A stretch of DNA of 64,000 nucleotides. Source: Clostridia bacterium. Lineage in GTDB: Bacteria > Bacillota > Clostridia > TANB77 > CAG-508. This document shows, piece by piece, positions 1 through 57,702 of the stretch (the first letter of the stretch is position 1; the number at the start of each line of letters is the position of its first letter). The translations under genes and the position numbers were made by a program. The notes below the pieces were generated by a model. The model was not told where the DNA came from. It saw only the letters and a program-made list of their open reading frames with translations, and did no database searches. Where the stretch lies: NCBI GenBank assembly GCA_017469445.1, contig JAFUGK010000008.1, positions 1,291-65,290 on the forward strand. Reading direction: 5' to 3'.

Positions 1-155
1 TCGTTTTCTATTTCTTCATTGCTTGACTTTAATGTATTTACCCTCAATGTAGTTGCTCTTTTAGAAGAATAACCTTCTACTATTCTTTTCACATCTTCTT
101 TACTGTATTGTTCTTCCAAAATTTCAGATAAAAATTGTGGTAATTCTTTTTTCAT
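1..155 (-). CDS. RsmB/RsmF (NOL1/NOP2/Sun) family RNA m5C methyltransferase, 5' part (runs off window)
   Basis: Own translation MKKELPQFLSEILEEQYSKEDVKRIVEGYSSKRATTLRVNTLKS...; the LRVNTLK motif is typical of the N-terminus of this family. Confidence 0.7.
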   Translation of the reverse strand, partial: MKKELPQFLSEILEEQYSKEDVKRIVEGYSSKRATTLRVNTLKSSNEEIEN

Positions 156-241
156 TTACATCATTCTTTCTTTTTAATTCTGCTTATGAAATACCATAAA
201 ACAAGTCAATTGTCAAATCAATTTTATGCCTTAATAATAAA

Positions 242-414
242 AGCAAATAATATTAAAATTTATGAAATGACGAATGTGCCGTGGAATGTTGGTGCAAATT
301 CTTAGGATATATCAAGGGAGGAAGCAGAAGTGAGAGGCTCGCTTGATATATCTTTAGAATTTGCAAAACATGTAGCAAGCCGAGGAAATTGAATAAATTT
401 TAATATTATTTGCT
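242..414 (+). repeat. Structured intergenic element family A, copy 1 (MITE-like or ncRNA)
   Basis: 22-bp terminal inverted repeat AGCAAATAATATTAAAATTTAT, nested stems; diverged reverse-complement copy at 28123-28303. Confidence 0.85.
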
Positions 415-472
415 ATATTACTTTTTTGCATAAACTTATGACAATTTTTTTCAAATTTTTTGCGATTTTTTC

Positions 473-501
473 TTTACAAATTGTGAATACTAATATAAAA
501 T
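473..501 (+). promoter_or_regulatory. Putative sigma-A promoter of tsaE operon
   Basis: TTTACA-N17-TAAAAT about 40 bp upstream of tsaE. Confidence 0.5.
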
Positions 502-540
502 TAGCATGTAAAAATATATTTTGTAAAAGTAGGTGAATTT

Positions 541-1014
541 ATGTTTAAATTTGTATCACATTCAGAAAATGAAACTATTGATTTTGCATGTAAACTTGCA
601 AGTAAATTAAAAAACGGAGATTTAATAGTTTTATCTGGCAATTTAGGATCTGGAAAAACTAGATTCACACAAGGTATTTTAAAAAATTTTGGACTAGAAG
701 ATGATATATCTAGCCCTACTTTTACTATTGTAAATGAACATCATTCTGGTAATACTAACATTTATCACTTTGATGTGTATAGATTACAGGATGAAGATGA
801 ATTCTATGCTATTGGTGGAGAAGAATATTTAAGCAATGGAATTTGCATAATTGAATGGGGCGAAATTATAGAATCTATTTTACCTAAAGATTACATTAAG
901 GTCATTTTTGAAAGAGACCCTGAAAATGAAAATAACAGAATTTTAAATTTTGAAGTACATGGAGATAGATTACTTCCAATTATTAAGGAGGTTTTTGAAA
1001 GTGAAAATACTTAG
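541..1014 (+). CDS. tsaE: tRNA threonylcarbamoyladenosine biosynthesis ATPase TsaE
   Basis: GNLGSGKT Walker A, SPTFTIVNE, HFDVYRL, IEWG motifs. Confidence 0.95.
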   Translation: MFKFVSHSENETIDFACKLASKLKNGDLIVLSGNLGSGKTRFTQGILKNFGLEDDISSPTFTIVNEHHSGNTNIYHFDVYRLQDEDEFYAIGGEEYLSNGICIIEWGEIIESILPKDYIKVIFERDPENENNRILNFEVHGDRLLPIIKEVFESENT

Positions 1015-1675
1015 TATTACAACATCAAGTAGTGTTTGCTCTGTATGTCTTTTGAATGATACTACTATTGTTAAAGAATTAAGCTTAAATAATGAAAAAA
1101 CTCATTCAGAAAACCTTATGCCTCTTGTATCAAAAATATTTGAAGAAACCGGACTTTTCCTAAACGATATAGATTATATAGCATGTGACATTGGCCCTGG
1201 TTCTTTTACTGGTATTAGAATTGGAATTGCTTCTGTTAAAGCTATGGCAGAAACCCATAATATAAAAATAATTCCAGTAAGCTCTCTAGAAGCTTTGGCA
1301 TATAACGTAGAAAATTCAGATAAATACATTTGTAGTTTAATAGATGCTAGAAATAGTAATGCTTATTCTGCATTATTTGATGAAAAACACAATATGATTT
1401 CCACATTTACTGCAGACACTGTTGATACAATTTTAAATAATCTGCCTCAAAAACCAATATGCTTTGTTGGAAATGCTGCAGAAATTTATACAGATAAAAT
1501 AACAGATATATTTAAAGAAAATGCAAATTTTGCTGAATGTAATTTATTATCATCTGCAAAACTTGGCATTTGTGCATACAGTAAAGCATTAAAAGATGAA
1601 TATGTTACAGCAGATACCCTACTACCTTTATACTTAAGGAAATCTCAAGCTGAAAGGATGTTAGAAAATGGATAA
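1001..1675 (+). CDS. tsaB: tRNA threonylcarbamoyladenosine biosynthesis protein TsaB
   Basis: HSENL, GPGSFTGIRIG, IDAR and PLYLRKSQAER motifs; GTG start at 1001 after AAGGAGG. Confidence 0.95.
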   Translation: MKILSITTSSSVCSVCLLNDTTIVKELSLNNEKTHSENLMPLVSKIFEETGLFLNDIDYIACDIGPGSFTGIRIGIASVKAMAETHNIKIIPVSSLEALAYNVENSDKYICSLIDARNSNAYSALFDEKHNMISTFTADTVDTILNNLPQKPICFVGNAAEIYTDKITDIFKENANFAECNLLSSAKLGICAYSKALKDEYVTADTLLPLYLRKSQAERMLENG

Positions 1676-2147
1676 TTTTACAGTCGATTTTATGACTTTA
1701 AAAGATTTAAATTCTATATTCCCTATTCTTTCTACAGATTTTGATGATTTTTGGAATTATAACACTTTAAAATCTGAACTTGATAAACCAGATTCTTTTG
1801 TACTTGTAGCAAAAGAAGATTCAAAAATTGTAGGATTTGCAGATATTTGGAAAGCTGTAGATATTATGCATTTAATGGATATTGTAGTTGCAAAAGATTA
1901 TAGACAAAAGCACATTGGTAGCCTTTTAATGAAAAAAGTTATTAATTTATGTACAGAAAAAAACATTTATGAATTAACTTTGGAAGTAAGGCAAAATAAT
2001 ATACCTGCCATTAATCTTTATAAAAAATTTGGATTTAAAGAAATTGGCATAAGAAAAAACTATTATGGAGCTAATAATAATGCTATTATTATGACTCTTT
2101 ACATAGATAAAAATTTTAAGGAGGAACTTTTAAGTGAAAAAAACTAA
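1668..2147 (+). CDS. rimI: Ribosomal protein N-acetyltransferase RimI (GNAT)
   Basis: LEVRQNNIPAINLYKKFGF..RKNYY motif; tsaE-tsaB-rimI synteny. Confidence 0.9.
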   Translation: MDNFTVDFMTLKDLNSIFPILSTDFDDFWNYNTLKSELDKPDSFVLVAKEDSKIVGFADIWKAVDIMHLMDIVVAKDYRQKHIGSLLMKKVINLCTEKNIYELTLEVRQNNIPAINLYKKFGFKEIGIRKNYYGANNNAIIMTLYIDKNFKEELLSEKN

Positions 2148-4539
2148 TGAATTAGATTACAAACAATTAAAAGAGGTTTGCGATCCTAAAATGTTTAAAT
2201 TTAAAACTACAGAAGAATTGGAAGGAACTAAAGAAGTTGTATATGGCCAAGAAAGAGGAATTCGAGCTCTAAAATTTGGTGTTCAAGTAGATGCCAAAGG
2301 ATATAACATTTTTGTAGAAGGTCCTTCAGGTGTTGGTAAAACTATATATACAAGAAATTATCTAAAAAAGATTTCAAAAAAGAAAAAAATTCCACACGAT
2401 TGGTGCTATATATATAATTTTGATAATCCAAATGAGCCTATAGCTGTATCTTTCCCTGCTGGACAAGGTAAAGTTTTTGAAAAAGATATGGCAGACTTTG
2501 TTAAGGATATAAAGCTAGATATTAAAAGAACTTTTGACAATGAAGATTTTGAAAAAGAAAAACAATTAATTAAGCAAGAATATGAAGAAAAAAGGACAAA
2601 GCTTCTTGAAAAATTGAATGAACAATCTATTAAATATGGTTTCCAAGTTAAATCTGCTCAAAATGGTATTTATATGATGCCTGTTTTAAATGGGAAAACA
2701 ATTGCAGAAGAAGAATTCGATAAACTAGACGAGGCTACTAAAAAGGAATTTGAAGATAAATCTAATATTGTTCAAGAGCAAATTTTTGCTGCTATTAGTG
2801 AAATTAAAGCTATAGAAAAAGAAGCAGATAAAAAAATAGATGAATGGCAATCTAATGTTGCCCTACTTACTATCAATTTACACATAAACGCATTAAAGAG
2901 CAAGTATAAAAGAAACAAAAAATTAAACAAATATTTTGATAATATAAAAACAGATATCTTAAAGAATATATCTCGTTTTACTGAAAAAGGAAAACAAGAT
3001 TCAAAACAACCACAAGGTCCACAAATAATGCAAAAGCCTGAACAAATTAAGCCTTGGTTAAATTATAGAGTTAATCTATTCATTGATAACAGTGAATTAG
3101 AAGGTGCCCCAGTTGTTATGGATACTAATTATTCATATCAAAACATATTTGGAAGGCTTGAATATGAAAATCAATTTGGAGCATTAAAAACAGATTTTAC
3201 AATGGTAAAGCCAGGGTTACTACATCAAGCAAATGGGGGTTATATAATATTCCAAGCAAAAGATTTAATATCTAATCCTGTTTGCTATGAAGAACTAAAA
3301 AAGGCCTTAACTGTTAAAGAATTAAATATAGAAAATGCTGTAGACCAGCGTACATCAATGGTTCTTGTTTCACTAAAACCAGAATCTATTCCATTAGATG
3401 TAAAAGTAATTTTAATAGGGGATTCAAATATTTACTATACCCTACTTTCACTAGATGAAGACTTTAGAAAATTATTCAAAATAAAAGTAGAATTCGAAGA
3501 GGATGCCCCTAGAACAGAAGAAAATATTATGATGCTTGCAGAATTTATTAGTGGTTTTTGCAAACGTGAAGAAATATTAGATTTAGACAGAGAAGCAATG
3601 GCAAAAATAGTAGAATTCTCTTCTAGCCTTGCTGATGATAAAAACAAAATATCTACACAATTTAATGCTATGAGTCAAATAGTTGCAGAGGCTTCTGCAT
3701 GGGCTGTAATGGATAAGAAAAAAATTGTGACAAAAGAATATATTCAAAAAGCACTAGATGAACGTATTGACAGAATTAAAAAATATGACTCTAAGTATGT
3801 AGAAATGATTAAAGAAAATACTCTTTTAATTTCAACAGATGGTAGCGAAGTTGGACAAATAAATGGTCTTACTGTTATGACTATTGGAGACTATTCTTTT
3901 GGTAAACCTTCTAAAATAACAGTTAACACTTATTTGGGCAAAAATGGACTTATAGATATACAACGTGAAATTGAACAATCTGGTTCTTCACACTCTAAAG
4001 GTGTATTAATACTAGAAGGATATTTAGGACAAACTTTTGCACAAGAATTTCCACTTTCACTAAATGCTAGTATTTGTTTCGAACAATTATATGGTGGAGT
4101 TGATGGAGATAGTGCTTCAAGTACAGAGCTATATGCCCTACTTTCTAGCTTGTCTGGTATACCAATAAATCAATCTATTGCAGTTACTGGTTCTGTAAAC
4201 CAAAAAGGCGAAATTCAGCCAATTGGTGGAATTAACGAAAAAATAACTGGATTCTATCAAATCTGCAAAATGCGCGGATTTAATAAGAAGCATGGTGTAA
4301 TAATGCCAGTTCAAAATGTTAGAAACTTACACTTATCAGATGAAATTATAGAAGATGTAAAACAAGGTAACTTCCACATTTATGCAATAAATTCAATAGA
4401 TGAAGGAATTGAAATTTTAACAGGTGTACCTGCCGGAAAGAAAAACAAAGATGGAAAATTCCCTGCTGGAAGTATAAATTACTTAGTATACGAAAAATTA
4501 AAAAAATATGCAGATTTAAGTAAAAAACAAGAGAAATAA
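2134..4539 (+). CDS. Lon-type (LonB/LonC-like, S16 family) ATP-dependent protease
   Basis: GQERG, GPSGVGKT, GLLHQANGG, catalytic DGDSAS, TGSVNQKGEIQPIGGINEKI. Confidence 0.9.
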   Translation: MKKTNELDYKQLKEVCDPKMFKFKTTEELEGTKEVVYGQERGIRALKFGVQVDAKGYNIFVEGPSGVGKTIYTRNYLKKISKKKKIPHDWCYIYNFDNPNEPIAVSFPAGQGKVFEKDMADFVKDIKLDIKRTFDNEDFEKEKQLIKQEYEEKRTKLLEKLNEQSIKYGFQVKSAQNGIYMMPVLNGKTIAEEEFDKLDEATKKEFEDKSNIVQEQIFAAISEIKAIEKEADKKIDEWQSNVALLTINLHINALKSKYKRNKKLNKYFDNIKTDILKNISRFTEKGKQDSKQPQGPQIMQKPEQIKPWLNYRVNLFIDNSELEGAPVVMDTNYSYQNIFGRLEYENQFGALKTDFTMVKPGLLHQANGGYIIFQAKDLISNPVCYEELKKALTVKELNIENAVDQRTSMVLVSLKPESIPLDVKVILIGDSNIYYTLLSLDEDFRKLFKIKVEFEEDAPRTEENIMMLAEFISGFCKREEILDLDREAMAKIVEFSSSLADDKNKISTQFNAMSQIVAEASAWAVMDKKKIVTKEYIQKALDERIDRIKKYDSKYVEMIKENTLLISTDGSEVGQINGLTVMTIGDYSFGKPSKITVNTYLGKNGLIDIQREIEQSGSSHSKGVLILEGYLGQTFAQEFPLSLNASICFEQLYGGVDGDSASSTELYALLSSLSGIPINQSIAVTGSVNQKGEIQPIGGINEKITGFYQICKMRGFNKKHGVIMPVQNVRNLHLSDEIIEDVKQGNFHIYAINSIDEGIEILTGVPAGKKNKDGKFPAGSINYLVYEKLKKYADLSKKQEK

Positions 4540-4570
4540 AAAAGAGCCATTGGCTCTTTTTTATTTCTCT
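4530..4570. terminator. Bidirectional intrinsic terminator
   Basis: 20-bp perfect inverted repeat (AAAAAAGAGCCA/TGGCTCTTTTTT core) between convergent genes. Confidence 0.8.
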
Positions 4571-6340
4571 TTAAAGAATTCCAGGATAATCTGTTTCATC
4601 TATTTCTTCTATTTTTTCTTTTTTATCCTTTGGATTCTTAAATTTATTATCGTACCTTTCTATAAATCTTTCTTTTTCTTCATCGGTCATTTCATCTACA
4701 CCATATTTTTTGTAGAATTTTACAAAAACTTTATCTTTTGAATACTCTTCTCCAAATTCTTTTTGAATATCTAATTCTATTGGTCCCAGTTGTTCCATAG
4801 CTTCTTCAGCATTAGTTTTTTCTGAGGCCACTTGTGCTTGTTTAGCAATAGGTATTATATCTTGTTTATTTATCATTTTCCCTTGATTATTTTTTTCATC
4901 TTGATTCGGATTACTTTTTAATGATTCTTCTCGGTACTCTTTATATATTCCTTTTATTACTTTAGTATATTTATCAACAATTGTTGAATTTATTTCACCA
5001 TTTTCTAATTTTTGAGATAATTTTGCATATATAGTTTTTTCTTCACTATCCAAAGTATTTATATCTTTTATAATTTCATCATCATCATCTATGGTATCAT
5101 CTATTTGTATTCCTGTATAATTCTTTATATCTTTGGTTACGATATTTTTTATTCTCCTATCAATAAGATTTACTATGTCTTTATTGTTTAATCTTTTAAA
5201 TGTACTTCCCAATTTTTCATAATTATTTATATTTATATATTTACTTATAATACTATGAATTTCGCTCTTATATGCCTTCATTAATTCCGGTGTATCTGCT
5301 AAAAAATTTTGTAACTTTACCATGCTTCTATCTTCGTTTAAACAGTATTCTAAAAACAACATAGGATCTGTTCGAATTATTGTCCCATAAATCTCAATTA
5401 TATGGTTGTTGTTACTCCTTTTCTCTTCCTTAAAATCAGATAATGAATCTCTTCTTGTTGTTGGTTCTTGATTATTATTTGCTGATATTGCTTTTTGTCT
5501 ATCTTCTACAATTTGCTTATAATCTTTAAATGTTCCATCTTCATTACATATTAGCTTTAATAATGGATATACTTTTATGTCCTCTTTTATTATATTTTGT
5601 TTTAAAGTTCTATCTGCTTCATATACTACAGGTAAGATCCTTTCTTCTGCTTTTTTAAATTCTAATTTCTCAAGATATCCATAGCCAATATTTTTACCAT
5701 AATTACGTCTTTCCCATGGATTATATTCGTTAGGGGCTTGAAGCATTTTTTCTTTTAATTCTGGCATATATTTATCAACAAACTCTTTTAAATATTCATA
5801 TGCACATACATTTGCATCATTCTCCATTATAAAATTCTTATGATTTTTTTTATACAATTCTGGTTTGTAACTTACAATATATTGTTCTTTTAGCATTACT
5901 ATGCTCAATGGATCAATATCTAAAATTTGCGATGGTTCTTTTCGAAATTGACTAAACTGGATTGCATGTCTATTTTCATGCATTGTTTGAAATATTTTTC
6001 TAAATGAACTTTGAGTAGTAGTAATAAAGCTTAATGCATACTTTATACTATTATTACTTGGATTATAATGACTATTCATTATTGTCTGAGTTGTATCAAA
6101 CTCTGCTTCTACATTATTTTTAAACTCTTTGCATATATACTTGTGACCTAATATTGTTAAAAATTGATGTTCTCTAATAGGAATTCCACTTTTATCTTTT
6201 GTCAAATTTCTACTATCAAAATCTTTTATCACTTCTTTTGTGAATTCTTTAAATTTTTCCATATCAAATTCATTAATTGGGGTATTTCGTAGTTTTTTAA
6301 TGTATTCATCTAATTCTTTTTTGGTTATTTCTTCTTTCAT
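4571..6340 (-). CDS. Hypothetical protein with zincin-like metallopeptidase motif
   Basis: 589-aa ORF with RBS AGAGGAG; HENRH (HExxH) followed by ENDAN. Confidence 0.7.
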   Translation of the reverse strand: MKEEITKKELDEYIKKLRNTPINEFDMEKFKEFTKEVIKDFDSRNLTKDKSGIPIREHQFLTILGHKYICKEFKNNVEAEFDTTQTIMNSHYNPSNNSIKYALSFITTTQSSFRKIFQTMHENRHAIQFSQFRKEPSQILDIDPLSIVMLKEQYIVSYKPELYKKNHKNFIMENDANVCAYEYLKEFVDKYMPELKEKMLQAPNEYNPWERRNYGKNIGYGYLEKLEFKKAEERILPVVYEADRTLKQNIIKEDIKVYPLLKLICNEDGTFKDYKQIVEDRQKAISANNNQEPTTRRDSLSDFKEEKRSNNNHIIEIYGTIIRTDPMLFLEYCLNEDRSMVKLQNFLADTPELMKAYKSEIHSIISKYININNYEKLGSTFKRLNNKDIVNLIDRRIKNIVTKDIKNYTGIQIDDTIDDDDEIIKDINTLDSEEKTIYAKLSQKLENGEINSTIVDKYTKVIKGIYKEYREESLKSNPNQDEKNNQGKMINKQDIIPIAKQAQVASEKTNAEEAMEQLGPIELDIQKEFGEEYSKDKVFVKFYKKYGVDEMTDEEKERFIERYDNKFKNPKDKKEKIEEIDETDYPGIL

Positions 6341-6367
6341 TTATCTTTCTCCTCTTTGTCTAATGTA

Positions 6368-6613
6368 CTAGTCATCTTTTTCTGTATTTCCAACATTTAA
6401 ATCTTTGTCTCCAAAAAATGTACAATTTATAATATTTCCATACTTGTTTTCCCAATTATTTAGTATTTTTTCCTTTTCCTCATCTGTATATCCATCTTCT
6501 AATTCATCAAGTATTCCATATAATTCAGTTTGCTCCAACATGTCAAATAAGATTCTATTTCCCTCCATGCCTATTCCCATTTTTTCATATTCTTGTATAG
6601 CACTATTCATCAA
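6368..6613 (-). CDS. Small acidic hypothetical protein (possibly frameshifted C-terminus of upstream gene)
   Basis: 81-aa ORF overlapping the stop of 6603-8453; similar to the C-terminus of 4571-6340 (TDEEKE..NK motif). Confidence 0.65.
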   Translation of the reverse strand: MMNSAIQEYEKMGIGMEGNRILFDMLEQTELYGILDELEDGYTDEEKEKILNNWENKYGNIINCTFFGDKDLNVGNTEKDD

Positions 6614-8453
6614 TTTTTTTATCTTTATCTCTATTCATAAATCTATTTAATAATCCCATCACTATTTCCTTCACGCCTTGTTTTTCCCTCGCAACCTTTT
6701 CGTTTTGGGCTACTTTTTTAACTTCTGCTGAAGTTAATTCTACTTGCTTATTTTCTCTTCTTCTATTATTAGTATCTATTAATTTTTCTATGCTATCTAT
6801 TGTTAGCTCAATTCCTAATGATTGTGATTTTTCAATTAATAACTTATTAACATTTATCCCTGTTTCTCCATTTATATATCTTAATCTTCCTGTTTTAATT
6901 TCTTCTTTTGCAACTTGTATCGCTTTTTCAATGCTACCACTATTTCTTATCTTTCTTGCTTCCCCTGTATGCTTCACATCACACAAGACTTGATAATTAT
7001 TAATAAGTTCTGTTATATCAGATATTTCTTCTACACTTCTTACTTGTTCTGAATTATTTATATCAATTTCTTGTTCAGAAACCCATTCTTCTGAAAATTC
7101 AAAACCCATTTTCCTATTTTCATGTTCTTTTAATGTAACCACAGGCGTAAAATTTTCTGGGTTTAATATATATGCATAATTAGGTTCTTTTAATATAACT
7201 CTTTTATTTCCATTTTCACTCTCTATTACTTTAAAATTATCTCCGCCATATACATAAGTATCTTTATTTAATAATATCATTCCTTCCCCCTGTTTCCTAG
7301 CCATATATGCATTTTTCCCATCAAGAGGAGTTGATGATGCAAATACCCAGTCTCCACTCTCTTCTTCATAATTGTTTGCTCTATTTTTAGAAGGAGTTAT
7401 TTTCCCATTTCTTATATTTTCTGGAGCAATATTTCTAATGTGTATTATACTTTCTTCCCTATTAATAAATAGTTCTTTTATTTCTTGCCTATATTGTTCC
7501 ATTAGCTCAAAAATAATTCTTGTTTCTGGATCTAGTTTATTTATATCTATTTTTACATTTTTATCATTATATAAATGAACTTTTTCTTTATTCTCTTTCA
7601 ATATGTTTAAAGCATTTTTGATTACTTCTGGATTTTGCTCTAATAATAATTCATTATACTTATTTTGGATTTGGCTCAATAGATTTGTCAATTCTTTTGT
7701 TTCCATCTTTATACTAGAAGCATCATCAATTCCACTTTTACCTTCTGATACTTCCTTAGCTTTATCCATTTCTATCATTTCTAATAATTTTTCTAATTCT
7801 ATTTCTTCTAATTCATATTCTCCATTAGTGTAGTCTAGCATTCTTGAATCTTTTAACATTTCTTCATAGTATCTCTCAATATATTGCTTAAAAGAAAATT
7901 CTGTTTTTGCATAACCTTCTATATTCATAAAAGGTCTATCTGTTTTTTCAATTTTACTTAATATATCATTTATATTTGTTTTACTTATTGCGTATCTAAC
8001 AATGGATTCTCTATCATGCTTTATTTCTCCTGTTTTAGTGTTTTTAACAACAACACCTTTTACTTTATCTAAACTTACAGAAGATTTTGTTTTTGGATCA
8101 GATATATCTCTTTTTGCATTTTCTTTGCGAATTTCTTCTGTTTCATCAAAAGATAAATATACTCTTGAATTTAGGTTTTCGTCTTCTTGCTGTTTAACAT
8201 CTTGTTCAAACATATCATCTAGTGATATTTCTTTATCTTCTTCATTCTCTAATAATTCATATTGATACCTGGCTTTAAAAAATGCATTAGTTACAATTAC
8301 TCCTTCCAATCCTAAAGAATATGATAATCCTAAGTTTTTAATATCATTTACTCTTTCAGAGCTTTTTCCTATCTTTGGTTTTAATGCTTTATCTTCATCA
8401 TTCATTATTGCTTTTAAATCTGGCGTCATATGATAGCACTTTTGTTTCTCCAT
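6603..8453 (-). CDS. Hypothetical protein, possibly two ADP-ribosyltransferase-like domains
   Basis: 616-aa ORF with RBS AAAGGA; YHMT..LKP..SYS and HIRN..ITPS..VFASS..YAY..EWVS motif sets. Confidence 0.65.
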   Translation of the reverse strand: MEKQKCYHMTPDLKAIMNDEDKALKPKIGKSSERVNDIKNLGLSYSLGLEGVIVTNAFFKARYQYELLENEEDKEISLDDMFEQDVKQQEDENLNSRVYLSFDETEEIRKENAKRDISDPKTKSSVSLDKVKGVVVKNTKTGEIKHDRESIVRYAISKTNINDILSKIEKTDRPFMNIEGYAKTEFSFKQYIERYYEEMLKDSRMLDYTNGEYELEEIELEKLLEMIEMDKAKEVSEGKSGIDDASSIKMETKELTNLLSQIQNKYNELLLEQNPEVIKNALNILKENKEKVHLYNDKNVKIDINKLDPETRIIFELMEQYRQEIKELFINREESIIHIRNIAPENIRNGKITPSKNRANNYEEESGDWVFASSTPLDGKNAYMARKQGEGMILLNKDTYVYGGDNFKVIESENGNKRVILKEPNYAYILNPENFTPVVTLKEHENRKMGFEFSEEWVSEQEIDINNSEQVRSVEEISDITELINNYQVLCDVKHTGEARKIRNSGSIEKAIQVAKEEIKTGRLRYINGETGINVNKLLIEKSQSLGIELTIDSIEKLIDTNNRRRENKQVELTSAEVKKVAQNEKVAREKQGVKEIVMGLLNRFMNRDKDKKIDE

Positions 8454-8470
8454 ATTTATATCCTTTCATT

Positions 8471-8659
8471 TTATATCATATTTGCAATTACTAAGAATAA
8501 TCCGCAAAGCACTACTGCAAAAATTCCAGATAAAATTACTTTTGTTGTTCCACTTAATTTTTCATTTTTCTCCAATACTAACATTCCTATTGTAAATAAT
8601 ATTGGTAATAAGATCAGACTAATTAAAAATGCATTACTAGAATATTTTAAACTTCCCAT
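8471..8659 (-). CDS. Small two-TM membrane protein
   Basis: 62 aa, two hydrophobic segments, RBS GGAGG. Confidence 0.7.
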   Translation of the reverse strand: MGSLKYSSNAFLISLILLPILFTIGMLVLEKNEKLSGTTKVILSGIFAVVLCGLFLVIANMI

Positions 8660-8663
8660 AATA

Positions 8664-9137
8664 CTATACCTCCATTTTTTTATTAAATAAATTTTTAAAC
8701 CATTTTTTTATTTTAGTAAAAATACTTTCTTTGTATTCTACCATTTGCGTTTCTGTTACAATTTTCTCTTGTTTTATTTTTTCTTCATTATCTTTGTTTT
8801 TAAATATATTATCCGTATTGTATTTTTTTCTTTTTTCTTCTTCTATTTTATTTAAGCAAAATTTATCGTACTTTTCCCATAGCTCTTTTTCTTCTTCTGG
8901 TGCTAAATATCTTTCGTATATTTCTACTAATAGTGCTTTAGTTTCAATCATTAAATTTTGCTCAAAAATTCCTTTTGTATTGTCATATTTAAATTCATAA
9001 CTTGTATCCATATTTTTTACAAGATTTTCTTTAAATACTTCCGGAATTTTATCTTTTTGCTCATCAGATAATACTTTTAATATTTCATTTAGCTCTACAT
9101 AAGCTTTTTGATATTGCATTGTCTTTTCTTTTGTCAT
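8664..9137 (-). CDS. Hypothetical protein with C-terminal amphipathic helix
   Basis: 157-aa ORF with RBS AGGAGG; ends ESIFTKIKKWFKNLF. Confidence 0.8.
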   Translation of the reverse strand: MTKEKTMQYQKAYVELNEILKVLSDEQKDKIPEVFKENLVKNMDTSYEFKYDNTKGIFEQNLMIETKALLVEIYERYLAPEEEKELWEKYDKFCLNKIEEEKRKKYNTDNIFKNKDNEEKIKQEKIVTETQMVEYKESIFTKIKKWFKNLFNKKMEV

Positions 9138-9196
9138 ATTATAATTCCTCCTATTTGTATTTTTAGAGCTTGTACAAAATCTATCTATCCAATTAA

Positions 9197-9225
9197 ATTA
9201 TATACTACTGCAACTTAAACTACAA
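9197..9225 (-). promoter_or_regulatory. Putative sigma-A promoter of the 9137-4571 operon
   Basis: TTGTAG-N17-TATAAT on the minus strand. Confidence 0.45.
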
Positions 9226-9292
9226 TTAATTTACGCAAATGTCATATAAATGTAATATTTCAGTAAAATTTAAATGAATATTTAAAAATCTT

Positions 9293-9321
9293 TTGACATA
9301 AAATAAAAAATGTAGTATATT
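9293..9321 (+). promoter_or_regulatory. Putative sigma-A promoter of candidate sRNA
   Basis: TTGACA-N17-TATATT. Confidence 0.6.
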
Positions 9322-9327
9322 ATATGT

Positions 9328-9397
9328 AACTTAAGTTAATCTGATGGAGTTATATTAACAACTGAACTAAATGTGTGGTAGCATTTAGTTCTTTTTT
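9328..9397 (+). ncRNA. Candidate small non-coding RNA (about 70 nt)
   Basis: Consensus promoter, hairpin GTTAAT..ATTAAC, terminator GAACTAAATG/CATTTAGTTC followed by a T-run; no credible ORF. Confidence 0.45.
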
Positions 9398-9402
9398 ACA
9401 CA

Positions 9403-9434
9403 AAAAAAGTGAGGAGTGGTAGTTCCTCACTTTT
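9403..9434 (-). terminator. Intrinsic terminator of acyl-CoA ligase
   Basis: AAAAGTGAGGA..TCCTCACTTTT hairpin. Confidence 0.7.
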
Positions 9435-55163: not shown

Positions 55164-55377
55164 ACTTTTCCTTTCATATTTCTTTTAATTTATAATATGA
55201 GAAAATTTTTAATATTAGAAATTCTTTTACAATATTTTATATAGTAGTTGCAGGTAAAAAACTAAAATAAAATTTTTCATAAAATTCAAGAAAAGTCTTG
55301 TTTTTTTGCCCATTTTGTAGGATAATATAAGTGTACGGATATTTATATTTGAAGATAATTTGAAAGTGGTGAATATT

Positions 55378-57702
55378 TTGAAAATATTTGATAAATTTCT
55401 AAAATTTTTAGGCACAGATAGAAACACTTTTTTAACATATATATTAACATTAGTAACTATTTATCTAGTAATCGATAGATTTGTAGAATTGCTATTTTTA
55501 TGTTTTACTGGTATTTCTAATTCATATTGGGGGCCTATTACATACACATTAGCATTTGCGTGCCCTGTATTTGCATTTTTGTTTTCAGGTGCATCAAAAT
55601 TTGCTAATTCCCCACCAACAAAAGTAGCATTTTTCAATTTATATTGTATAGCTTTATATATATTAGTACTTTCAATGCTTGTAAGTTTTGCAAATAAATT
55701 TGCTTGGCTATTATTTATGTTAGTTCCAAACTATGCTGAAATAGTAACAGATTTTCCAGAACTAGTTGGTCCTGCTTTTACAGCTCTTGCAATTTACTTA
55801 CCTCTTACAACATTCTATCCTTTCTTTAAGAAGATATATACTTGGATAAATGATACTAAGGATATAAGAGATTCCATTGACGATTATGGTGGTATAGATT
55901 TATCTCCTGTTTCAGATGCTGTCGGTCCTTACACATGTGAAATTGAACTTTGTAGAGATAAAGATACTAATAAAATAGTAAAAATTCCAGAAGCAAAAAG
56001 ATTTGATTCTACATTAGTTGTTGGTATTTCTGGTATGGGTAAGACTGCACTTGTTTTTGACCCAATGATGGCACAAGATTTGGAGAAAAAATTCTTCTTT
56101 AAAGAGACTGGAAAAGAAATGGGATTTACTGCTTTAAAAACTGGAATTGCAAATTTAAATTGCCCATATGATAATGATTATATAAACAAGAACTTTTCTT
56201 TAGGTATGTTAACACCTACTGAAGGAAAAGAAAAACTATATAAAGCATATATGCGTAAAATGTTAAATAATGAGTCTGGTGAGCTTATATATAAAGATTT
56301 AGGTCTAACATATGTTGCACCAGATGCAGAAGAAGCAAAAATAATTGTAGATGTGGCAAATAATTTTAATATTCCAGTTAACTATATCGATCCTGCTAAT
56401 TTAACATCAATTGGATTAAATCCTTTTGTATATGATGATCCTGTTAAAGTAGCATTGATAGTATCTTCTATATTAAGAAGTATGTCTAATATATCTGCTT
56501 ATGATGTTGTAGAAGATACAAGGGCTGAAAATATAACATCACAAATTGTAGAGAATTTATCTATTTTACTTAAAGAATACTATCCACATAAAAAAGATGG
56601 TGTGTTACCTAATTTAGAAGATTTATATAAGTTAATGAATAATTTTGATTTAATCGAAAATATGTGTGAAGAAATAAAAGCTATTCCAGAGCTTGCAGAA
56701 AAATATAATATTCAACTTGCATTTCTAAAAAGGAACTTCTATGCTAGTTCTTCTGCAAGAGATGATATGGCAAAAAGCTTAGCTTCTGCCATAAGCCAAT
56801 TAGATAGTTTATTAAGACATCCTGGTGTAAAAAGCATATTATGTAATAGAACAAATAACATTAATTTTGATAATGCTTTAAGAAATGGTGAAGTAACTAT
56901 AGTATGCACAAGACGTGGTGATTTAGGAGCTAGAGTTCATAAAGCATTTGGATTATTCTTCTTAATGTTAATGCAACATTCAGTTCTTACAAGACCTGGA
57001 AATGACAAAACAAGAATACCTCATTATTTATATATTGATGATTTTTACAATTTTATATGTTCTTCAACAGAACCTATATTTACAGTATATAGAAAATACA
57101 AAGTTGCGACAATATTATCTGCACAAAACTTAACTCAACTTGAAGGAGACAGTAAAAACGAAAATTATAAGAAAACTATCCTTACAAACTGTGCAAATAA
57201 AATTGTATTTGGAGATGGTGATCCTAAAGATAATGAATGGTGGGAAGATGAATTCGGTCAAAAAAGAGAATGGCAATGGAGTAGTAACTATAATCTTGAG
57301 GATGGAAAAGTTGGTTATGATCCAAAACTAAACGGAATAAAATATGCTTGGACAGCTAATGTAAATAAAGGAAAACTAAAATCTATTAAATTTAAGAATT
57401 GTGCTTACAAAATAAAGCAAATGAATGGTAGATTTATAGCAAATGAAGGTAAACTAGATTTCTTACAATCTAAGTATAAAGAACCTCACAATGGTAAAAC
57501 ATTTAATTTTTCAAAATTTACACCTGGTATGCATGAAAGCGAAAAAGATAAAAATAAGAAACTTAAATTTAATTACAAATCTGTAGATTTTGATTCTGAT
57601 TTAGAAGTTGATCCTATTCAAACAGATACTTCTGATTTAGACCATTTATTTGATAACGAAAATGCAATAACATTTAATATTAAGAATAATTCTAATGGAT
57701 AA
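55378..57702 (+). CDS. VirD4/TraG-like type IV coupling ATPase
   Basis: N-terminal TMs, Walker A GISGMGKT, Walker B YIDDF, RKYKV..ILSAQNLTQL, ILTNCANKIVFG; start uncertain (55360-55378). Confidence 0.8.
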   Translation: MKIFDKFLKFLGTDRNTFLTYILTLVTIYLVIDRFVELLFLCFTGISNSYWGPITYTLAFACPVFAFLFSGASKFANSPPTKVAFFNLYCIALYILVLSMLVSFANKFAWLLFMLVPNYAEIVTDFPELVGPAFTALAIYLPLTTFYPFFKKIYTWINDTKDIRDSIDDYGGIDLSPVSDAVGPYTCEIELCRDKDTNKIVKIPEAKRFDSTLVVGISGMGKTALVFDPMMAQDLEKKFFFKETGKEMGFTALKTGIANLNCPYDNDYINKNFSLGMLTPTEGKEKLYKAYMRKMLNNESGELIYKDLGLTYVAPDAEEAKIIVDVANNFNIPVNYIDPANLTSIGLNPFVYDDPVKVALIVSSILRSMSNISAYDVVEDTRAENITSQIVENLSILLKEYYPHKKDGVLPNLEDLYKLMNNFDLIENMCEEIKAIPELAEKYNIQLAFLKRNFYASSSARDDMAKSLASAISQLDSLLRHPGVKSILCNRTNNINFDNALRNGEVTIVCTRRGDLGARVHKAFGLFFLMLMQHSVLTRPGNDKTRIPHYLYIDDFYNFICSSTEPIFTVYRKYKVATILSAQNLTQLEGDSKNENYKKTILTNCANKIVFGDGDPKDNEWWEDEFGQKREWQWSSNYNLEDGKVGYDPKLNGIKYAWTANVNKGKLKSIKFKNCAYKIKQMNGRFIANEGKLDFLQSKYKEPHNGKTFNFSKFTPGMHESEKDKNKKLKFNYKSVDFDSDLEVDPIQTDTSDLDHLFDNENAITFNIKNNSNG

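Follow-up and report, generated by a model that had tools for sequence, protein, structure and literature searches.

Introduction

Chaperones and adaptors of secretion systems can be encoded beside their substrates, as exemplified by flagellar FliS, FlgN and FliT, which bind C-terminal helices, by IcmS-IcmW on DotL in Legionella, by Eag/Tap of type VI and by Lap/EsaE of type VIIb secretion systems. Polymorphic toxins have a conserved N-terminal part for trafficking and a variable toxin at the C-terminus, and the accompanying small gene encodes an immunity protein for the toxin domain. Hyperpromiscuous antitoxin domains such as PanA (Panacea) unite one small-protein family with many unrelated toxin-like partners, and we know of no description of a shared handle on these toxins. 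The antibacterial effectors of Xanthomonas-type type IV secretion systems (T4SS) combine a variable enzyme with a conserved C-terminal domain that is bound by VirD4 (PMC8740702). In this study, we analyzed a stretch of 64,000 nucleotides (the window) from a Clostridia bacterium of the GTDB order TANB77, family CAG-508 (assembly GCA_017469445.1, contig JAFUGK010000008.1, positions 1,291 to 65,290). It contains an operon that starts with the gene of a small protein, p157 (157 amino acids, aa; window 8664..9137, minus strand), and also encodes two large cargo proteins, P0002 (616 aa; 6603..8453, minus strand) and P0001 (589 aa; 4571..6340, minus strand). P0001, and probably also P0002, carries a tail of a class that we term G2, which is one class among order-wide short C-terminal tails on very different enzyme-like proteins. 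These tails are shuffled among unrelated protein bodies, and their class follows the clade of the neighbouring p157.

With the XVIPCD effectors (PMC8740702; see also PMC6759196), this system shares the joining of many unrelated enzymatic bodies to a conserved C-terminal recognition module, and a VirD4-type protein is likewise found in this genome and in nearly all relatives. The tails described here are, however, far shorter (about 45 residues) and fall into several classes, each matched to a clade of an adjacent 150-aa protein. Furthermore, the hosts are Gram-positive-type Clostridia, no full T4SS channel was found beside the stand-alone coupling protein, and a sequence relation to XVIPCD was neither looked for nor seen. 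As in the case of secretion chaperones, a small helical protein that would be specific for a non-catalytic handle is encoded beside a variable substrate, but p157 has no sequence or family match to FliS/FlgN/FliT, IcmS-IcmW, Eag/Tap or Lap/EsaE, and the source genome yielded neither FlhA nor WXG100 proteins nor an EssC-like ATPase. Shuffled toxin-like domains, tightly linked small genes, many copies per genome and arrays of alternating large and small genes are features in common with polymorphic toxin systems (see PMC3482391). In contrast to these systems, what is conserved here is a very short part at the C-terminus, and p157 follows the tail and not the body (p157 similarity 0.53 versus 0.29 and 0.56 versus 0.28; see below). 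Toxin-type Pfam families occur only on some of the 48 cargo bodies scanned (Fic and GNAT; weakly Zeta, RelA_SpoT and Tox-ART-HYD1), and 29 of the 48 belong to no family. PanA and p157, which has no Pfam family, are unrelated in sequence.

Literature searches on TANB77/CAG-508, Gram-positive C-terminal secretion signals, polymorphic toxins, adaptors and XVIPCD/VirD4 returned no description of a p157-tail system, and the pairing looks like a previously undescribed tag-and-adaptor system. If real, it would constitute the "address label" of a large unannotated protein set in prevalent, uncultured gut bacteria, and candidate effectors could be listed from sequence by tail class and neighbouring p157 clade. 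It would also add a new family of specificity-swapping adaptors and thereby a natural set of orthogonal peptide-adaptor pairs.

A C-terminal tail on unrelated proteins

The source genome (1.53 Mb, 28% G+C, 94% complete, 26 contigs) was searched as a set of 11,503 open reading frames (ORFs). In P0001, the tail core INKQDIIPIAKQAQVASEKTNAEEAM occupies residues 490-515 (window 4796..4873, minus strand); in P0002, the core LTSAEVKKVAQNEKVAREKQGVKEIV spans residues 573-598 (6660..6737, minus strand) and is followed by a charged end of 18 residues (6606..6659, minus strand), the last part of the protein. A first-pass annotation of this DNA had reported the two 26-mers at these places, that of P0002 one base off at 6661-6738, and had called the proteins otherwise unrelated, which agrees with a best E value of 3.4 in a BLASTP comparison of P0001 and P0002. 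Its further claim of a shared motif is not borne out by the pair alone, which is at chance level. With 6 identities and 14 positives among 26 positions, the pair reaches a BLOSUM62 score of 32 and ranks fourth among all 26-residue windows between the two proteins. In 295 of 300 shuffles, the best window scored at least 32, and the shuffle mean of 37.9 lies above the score of the pair. A Smith-Waterman alignment of the two tails scored 40, which was equalled or beaten in 102 of 1000 shuffles, and the tail match is not reported by BLASTP. Among the 11,503 ORFs, the proposed consensus matched its two founders only, and phmmer with the two tails returned no paralogue.

Profiles of relatives provide the support that the pair lacks. 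A profile of the pair (A3), run against 301 genomes of the order at E values up to 0.1, matched in nine other genomes. Three of these matches (G017, G100 and G298) are strongly alike and lie 16-20 residues from the end of frames of 400, 489 and 434 residues, respectively; the six remaining ones are internal or partial and occur in unrelated proteins. A second round, with a profile of six tails (A5) and 401 genomes, brought two more carriers from the order: a protein of 719 aa with a HEYSH sequence in G282 (E 3.5e-7) and one of 241 aa in G355 (E 3.0e-6). Both were matched at their C-terminal ends; matches in the remaining 16 genomes were weak and mostly not C-terminal. The carriers in G017, G100, G298, G282 and G355 end 0-20 residues past the motif. 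The G2 tail class extends to at least six further unrelated proteins without signal peptides, in which it is followed by 15-20 residues. Besides P0001 and P0002, the carriers comprise an NTase-like protein (L092), a zincin-like protein with HEYSH (L095) and a protein matched by Peptidase_S8 (L094), and no N-terminal hydrophobic segment was detected in any tail-bearing protein scanned. The iterative hidden Markov model (HMM) search that had been suggested as a check on the motif came out as foreseen: hypothetical proteins of diverse kinds, lacking signal peptides, were matched close to their C-terminal ends, and these matches support a lineage-specific tag. In a collection of 5.8 billion proteins, the six-tail profile retrieved nothing beyond relatives of its training families (of 3,360 candidates, which were "longer" proteins, 11 had E values up to 1).

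To avoid circularity, a further profile was built from six foreign tails only, all from other genomes, and run on the 11,503 ORFs of the source genome. P0001 was the top match (E 7.8e-5, residues 487-518). P0002 was aligned in register at residues 572-612 with 12.7 bits and a domain E value of 0.054, or with 16.1 bits and a domain E value of 0.0047 when the null2 composition correction was omitted. Ranked without this correction, P0002 came first (E 5.5e-6) and P0001 second (E 5.8e-6), followed by a third ORF at 0.0098. Because of these scores, we regard P0001 as a firm member of the G2 class and P0002 as a probable, diverged member with marginal support. The P0001 core is identical at 12 of 26 positions to the tail of G017, and equally to those of G100 and G298; in the P0002 core, only 6-9 residues are common with these three. 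P0002 stops exactly 18 residues past its core, as do the carriers in G017 and G100, whereas 74 more residues follow the core in P0001, compared to 15-20 in the usual carriers. Nucleotide identity between tail cores is 0.47-0.68 and different codons are used at 31 of 101 identical residues, which indicates conservation at the protein level. The first-pass annotation thus spotted a real feature on thin evidence. By its hydrophobic moment (0.07-0.10), the tag, which that annotation called a helix, is no continuous amphipathic one.

Tail classes vary together with p157 clades

For a broader view, 40 more p157 loci were combined with the six earlier ones, yielding 46 loci with 52 p157 genes. On the same strand and no more than 150 bases away lay 74 neighbours (42 upstream, 32 downstream). 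Many of these neighbours end in a second tail class, G1, with the pattern F[ST]xxEIGKATINxPT..KD.A and a Q/E/K-rich end. An HMM built from 11 seed tails gave 26 matches in 1,812 ORFs and, after convergence, 34 matches (31 unique), all of them 1-17 residues before the stop. Further tail classes beyond G1 and G2 are visible among the p157 neighbours. The cargo bodies are highly diverse: in the Pfam scan of 48 neighbours, GH10 was found in seven and Fic in two, and single neighbours contained BspA-type leucine-rich repeats (LRRs), a subtilase match or GNAT; Zeta-toxin and RelA_SpoT matches were below cut-off.

A tree computed for 58 p157 proteins unites the five that are encoded beside G2 tails in one clade (support 100/96), apart from the 24 beside G1 tails, and other well-supported p157 clades go with other tail classes. 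The p157 of the window falls into the G2-tail-neighbour clade (100/96). We quantified this co-variation as the normalised bit score of p157 between cassettes, grouped by tail class and by homology of the cargo bodies. For pairs of cassettes whose cargo bodies are unrelated, the similarity of p157 was 0.53 when the tail class was the same (n=113) and 0.29 when it differed (n=346), a difference that was reached in 0 of 2000 permutations, although this test overstates independence because the compared sequences are kin. Among cassettes with homologous cargo bodies, the respective values were 0.56 (n=56) and 0.28 (n=43). As p157 similarity tracks the tail class in unrelated and homologous bodies alike, p157 follows the tail and not the enzyme.

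Individual loci illustrate the exchange of parts. In G201, a P0001 homologue carries another tail, and its p157 belongs to another clade. In G017, a G2-clade p157 adjoins the acyl-CoA synthetase-like gene that also borders p157 in the window, and is accompanied by a different cargo that has kept the G2 tail, which suggests cargo replacement at one site. Within locus L095 (G282:C3, 7341-13944), small and large genes alternate in an array on one strand, in the order 307-aa gene, p157, 119-aa gene, 719-aa cargo with G2 tail, p157 of the G2 clade, 425-aa cargo and p157. The 425-aa cargo in this array bears a tail of another class and the last p157 is of another clade, so that each tail class matches its downstream p157.

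p157, a proposed partner protein confined to the order

In the family alignment of p157 (A6), a conserved N-terminal domain of about 100 aa is followed by the likewise conserved stretch KYNxDxIFKN, and a linker that varies leads to a C-terminal helix, which is basic and amphipathic; the hydrophobic moment of p157 is 0.50 at residues 133-156, compared to at most 0.36 elsewhere. The protein is encoded in 328 of 401 genomes of the order, in one to at least nine copies each. A class-wide sample contained p157 in four of seven genomes of this order and in none of 193 genomes from other orders. In a library of 1.84 billion proteins, 4,666 clusters (50% identity, E up to 0.001) were retrieved, nearly all with lengths of 143-170 residues, and p157 clusters in the Atlas are labelled "hypothetical protein" without a Pfam family. 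Searches of phage and plasmid collections returned no match. p157 is thus a large family confined to this order. A faint structural lead connects it to a cluster that is partly annotated as YezG-like (template-modelling score, TM, 0.40/0.60).

A p157 homologue lies directly beside the carrier in five of six fetched loci as well as in the window, often with overlapping start and stop codons. Of the 34 loci of P0002 relatives, six contain p157 homologues, four of which directly adjoin the P0002 relative. The 642-aa protein P0140 combines an entire p157 with an ADP-ribosylglycohydrolase (PF03747, E 2.4e-60) and DUF6508, a fusion that may point to a connection of p157 with ADP-ribosylating cargo. 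The source genome itself encodes two additional paralogues. One of these, outside the G2 clade, is located in the region 214340-216786 of contig C21 and preceded by genes of 135 and 518 aa; the end of the 518-aa protein (..RIGKEIFTGEDR..) looks like another tail variant that the G1 and G2 profiles miss. The other, on C17, is shorter.

Proposed function and alternative explanations

We propose that the tail is a docking peptide for its cognate adjacent adaptor, p157, and put the probability of this reading at roughly 55%. Each tail consists of a conserved core of some 25 residues, to which a charged end of 15-20 residues is appended, and the cargo comprises many unrelated enzyme- or toxin-like proteins without signal peptides in this order of uncultured gut Clostridia with small genomes. 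The N-terminal domain of p157 would bind its cognate tail class, and the KYNxDxIFKN stretch together with the basic amphipathic C-terminal helix could take the complex to a common destination, such as the membrane or an export or release route. Since one G2-clade p157 heads the operon with both cargo proteins, P0001 and P0002 would be expected to bear the same tail. Physical binding of p157 to the tail, and the steps that may follow it, are what the co-variation leads us to infer. Export or delivery of the cargo, with the order-wide stand-alone VirD4-type coupling protein as a candidate receiver, is a tentative extension. Unlikely in our estimation is an undescribed, order-confined delivery system in which interchangeable tag classes on dozens of cargo families are read by p157 clades and the cargo is handed to the stand-alone VirD4-type ATPase or another exporter; if it existed, such a system would represent a Gram-positive counterpart of XVIPCD/VirD4 effector recognition with an extra adaptor layer.

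Several observations weigh against the docking model or its extension to export. In the foreign-tail profile, P0002 as a whole protein drops to an E value of 10 after a composition penalty of 20 bits. A profile-profile comparison by hhalign did not link G1 and G2 (E 0.12), and the notion of one family of tails hence rests on position, context and pattern. The sequences in the co-variation analysis are kin and the G2 clade amounts to a single contrast. For 30 of 61 p157 genes, the G1 and G2 profiles detected no neighbour; by eye, several of these undetected neighbours bear other tail classes and some bear none. The G298 carrier lacks an adjacent p157, and the nearest one (44% identity) stands solo on another contig. 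The P0140 fusion is as compatible with protection as with a function as adaptor. With regard to export, no VirB4 (AAA_10, PF12846) exceeded the cut-off in the source genome (best 24.8 bits versus 27.5). Components of a type VII secretion system were likewise not detected, with no match to PF06013 (WXG100) in this 94%-complete genome, and an EssC-like multi-domain ATPase was not found, PF01580 yielding one protein over cut-off, of 762 aa. The flagellar export gate FlhA (PF00771) gave no match in the source genome either.

Instead of an adaptor, p157 might be a generic neutraliser of the antitoxin or immunity type. The cargo proteins would then be intracellular toxins that are held inactive via the tail, through sequestration, tethering or handing to a protease, and nothing would be exported. 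Such a role would fit the tight pairing of genes, whose start and stop codons overlap, and it is also consistent with the sharing of one p157 by two cargo genes in the window, with housekeeping-type TATAAT -10 boxes upstream of 10 of 15 p157 genes and with the faint YezG-like lead (TM 0.40/0.60). Part of the cargo is of toxin type, including Fic (L133, P0015), GNAT (L107), NTase-like parts, weak matches to Zeta toxin and RelA_SpoT and weak ADP-ribosyltransferase leads, and the enzyme to which p157 is fused in P0140 belongs to a class that reverses ADP-ribosylation. On the other hand, p157 tracks the tail and not the catalytic body, the opposite of ordinary immunity or antitoxin specificity, and there is no obvious way in which binding of a distal 45-residue tail would block such different active sites. 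GH10 (7 of 48 neighbours) and BspA-type LRR cargo are not usual intracellular toxins, and no PADLOC family was matched. Neutralisation is the main alternative to the adaptor reading, but appears to us an unlikely function of p157.

The original proposal for the tail was a type IV secretion signal that the coupling protein reads directly, which would leave p157 without a role in recognition. A lineage-specific tag and a VirD4-type protein do exist: a stand-alone 681-aa VirD4/TraG/TrwB-type protein is encoded in the genome, such proteins occur in 274 of 281 genomes, and a second, divergent copy is present in the window (55360-57702). Xanthomonas-type T4SS effectors have the same layout of variable enzyme plus C-terminal signal (PMC8740702). 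As a reader, however, p157 is better supported, because its clade co-varies with the tail. Direct reading leaves this co-variation unexplained and is difficult to reconcile with several tail classes per genome but mostly one conserved coupling protein, with the presence of p157 in all seven coupling-negative genomes and of the coupling protein in all 19 p157-negative ones, and with the lack of an over-cut-off VirB4 in the genome and, by eye, of T4SS genes beside the stand-alone gene. We consider it very unlikely; a tag-adaptor pairing that spans the whole order is the stronger and the new result. Chance resemblance of two K/E-rich helical linkers without shared function would explain why 295 of 300 shuffles reach the score of the pair, why BLASTP is silent and why the genome holds no further match to the consensus. 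The failure of the P0002 tail in the composition-corrected whole-protein test points the same way, as does P0003, the closest homologue of P0001 (49% identity), in which the aligned stretch differs and the motif is lacking. For P0001, chance is already largely refuted by the foreign-tail profile, which finds it at the exact place (E 7.8e-5); moreover, all credible matches are C-terminal and beside p157 of one clade, and P0002 ends 18 residues past its core like the G017 and G100 carriers and ranks first of 11,503 ORFs without composition correction. As an explanation of the whole, chance is thus highly improbable. Lastly, the tail could direct proteins to the coat or exosporium at the surface of spores, where p157 would act as a morphogenetic anchor. 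The presence of SpoIVA (E 7.5e-123) indicates that the organism probably sporulates, spore coat proteins are not known to carry signal peptides and some of them are enzymes, and the basic amphipathic C-terminal helix of p157 would suit an anchor. Yet the -10 boxes of sigma-E and sigma-K promoters were found upstream of only 0 and 1 of 15 p157 genes, respectively, and both full patterns in 0 of 15, compared to TATAAT in 10 of 15, and a spore-surface tag is the least probable of these explanations by our assessment.

Coupling proteins and other candidate machinery

Whether or not it receives the cargo that p157 is proposed to bind, the stand-alone coupling protein of the source genome (681 aa; contig C5, 26074-28119, locus L151) is clearly assigned by Pfam (T4SS-DNA_transf, E 1.4e-82; TraG-D_C, E 1.5e-38; TrwB_AAD_bind). 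PF02534 matched it with an E value of 2.6e-83 in the genome scan, in which further copies were present. Its gene sits among cell-wall and other core genes and, by eye, has no other T4SS genes beside it. An orphan coupling protein of order-wide occurrence (274 of 281 genomes) is unusual in itself. Because it is near-universal, it does not discriminate: as all seven genomes without it carry p157 and all 19 p157-negative genomes in the sample carry it, there is no informative correlation between the two proteins. The divergent VirD4-like ATPase of the window (780 aa; 55360-57702, plus strand) is weakly matched but over cut-off (TraG-D_C, E 7.9e-9; T4SS-DNA_transf, E 2.3e-5) and lies 47 kb from the tail locus.

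The best AAA_10 match of the genome, an ORF of 782-787 aa on contig C7, is located in an apparent conjugative element. This region, at about 36000-57000 of C7 and judged by eye, also contains a 2,248-aa protein and a broken VirD4-like gene (475 + 151 aa). PilB/PilT-type ATPases are present in the genome. A role of the tail as an encapsulin cargo-loading peptide was rejected, as no shell protein was found with PF04454 in the source genome.

Cargo bodies and gene ends

Pfam, PHROG, NCBIfam and PADLOC assigned no family to p157, P0002, P0001 or the fourth protein of the operon, orf81 (81 aa; 6368..6613, minus strand). In PADLOC, which covers known anti-phage defence, none of the four matched a family at E values up to 0.1, and a sequence search for solved structures found no relative of any of them.

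P0002 consists of an N domain (about residues 1-245; 7719-8453, minus strand) and a C domain (about residues 250-545; 6819-7706, minus strand), after which the linker and tail follow. Homologues contain one or the other of these domains, joined to Fic, Sel1 or NTase-like parts, and most homologues stop straight after the C domain; a cluster with 99% identity to P0002 has the same length of 616 aa. Weak leads point to ADP-ribosyltransferases for the N domain, for which the Atlas scores clusters of DarT/PARP, Arr and Tox-ART-HYD1 at 0.83-0.84; L118 contains a related domain that matches Tox-ART-HYD1 with an E value of 0.005, which is below cut-off. A domain at the N-terminus of cargo, in which an aromatic-H-x-T motif precedes ..GL..R.G.N, recurs in P0002, L112, L113, L115, L118, L120, L127, L095, L100 and L093, and the weak leads for it include PARP with an E value of 0.13.

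P0001 is a putative zincin-like metallopeptidase, as suggested by its motif alone: HENRH (H121 E122 N123 R124 H125; 5966-5980, minus strand) and ENDA (E173 N174 D175 A176; 5812-5823, minus strand) are invariant in five of five family members (alignment A2). Between its tail core and stop, P0001 carries an extra C-terminal block of its family (..F..YKKYG...TDEEKE..FIE.Y..; 4574..4771, minus strand) that is kept in P0001, P0004, P0005 and the G201 homologue. This end block was considered as the true shared tag and rejected, since its profile (A4) matched only the P0001-family protein in G201 among 301 genomes; matches in 17 other genomes were weak, at scattered positions and in unrelated proteins. 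A likeness of p157 to the same block, seen by eye, was likewise dismissed, as the p157 profile misses the block (orf81 E 0.66).

The orf81 frame, shifted by +1, begins inside the last P0002 codons, right after a run of seven adenines (A7) at which it overlaps the P0002 stop. Its translation is similar to the end block of P0001 at the far C-terminus (YG..TDEEKE...NKYGN), with a BLASTP match to residues 546-569 (E 4e-4) and a Smith-Waterman score of 61 against the P0001 end that none of 1000 shuffles reached. Apart from P0001-family proteins, no relative of orf81 was found in the 301 genomes. At the DNA level, orf81 and the P0001 3' end share only a 14-base match, and a DNA repeat joining them was accordingly discarded. 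The likeness to the P0001 end also suggested that a frameshift at the A7 run might join P0002 and orf81. We set this aside because P0002 ends 18 residues past its core like other carriers and because of the 99%-identical 616-aa cluster. Candidate identities of orf81 are a small coupled gene, the remnant of a cargo gene that has been replaced, and an end displaced by a frameshift.

Genomic surroundings of the operon

Four minus-strand ORFs, in the order p157, P0002, orf81 and P0001, lie between two terminator-like hairpins (window 4529-9434). The hairpin upstream of p157 (9405..9434, minus strand) ends the acyl-CoA synthetase-like gene, and that directly after P0001, with 20 pairs (4529..4571, minus strand), closes the unit. 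A phage or plasmid origin of the operon was rejected: the P0001 and P0002 families had no relatives in the viral contigs searched, p157 had no match in the phage and plasmid collections, and there was no PHROG family. On the plus strand, window positions 1-4539 contain, by eye, genes resembling tsaE, tsaB and rimI as well as a gene for an 801-aa Lon-like protease. The latter converges on P0001, and a bidirectional terminator is common to both genes.

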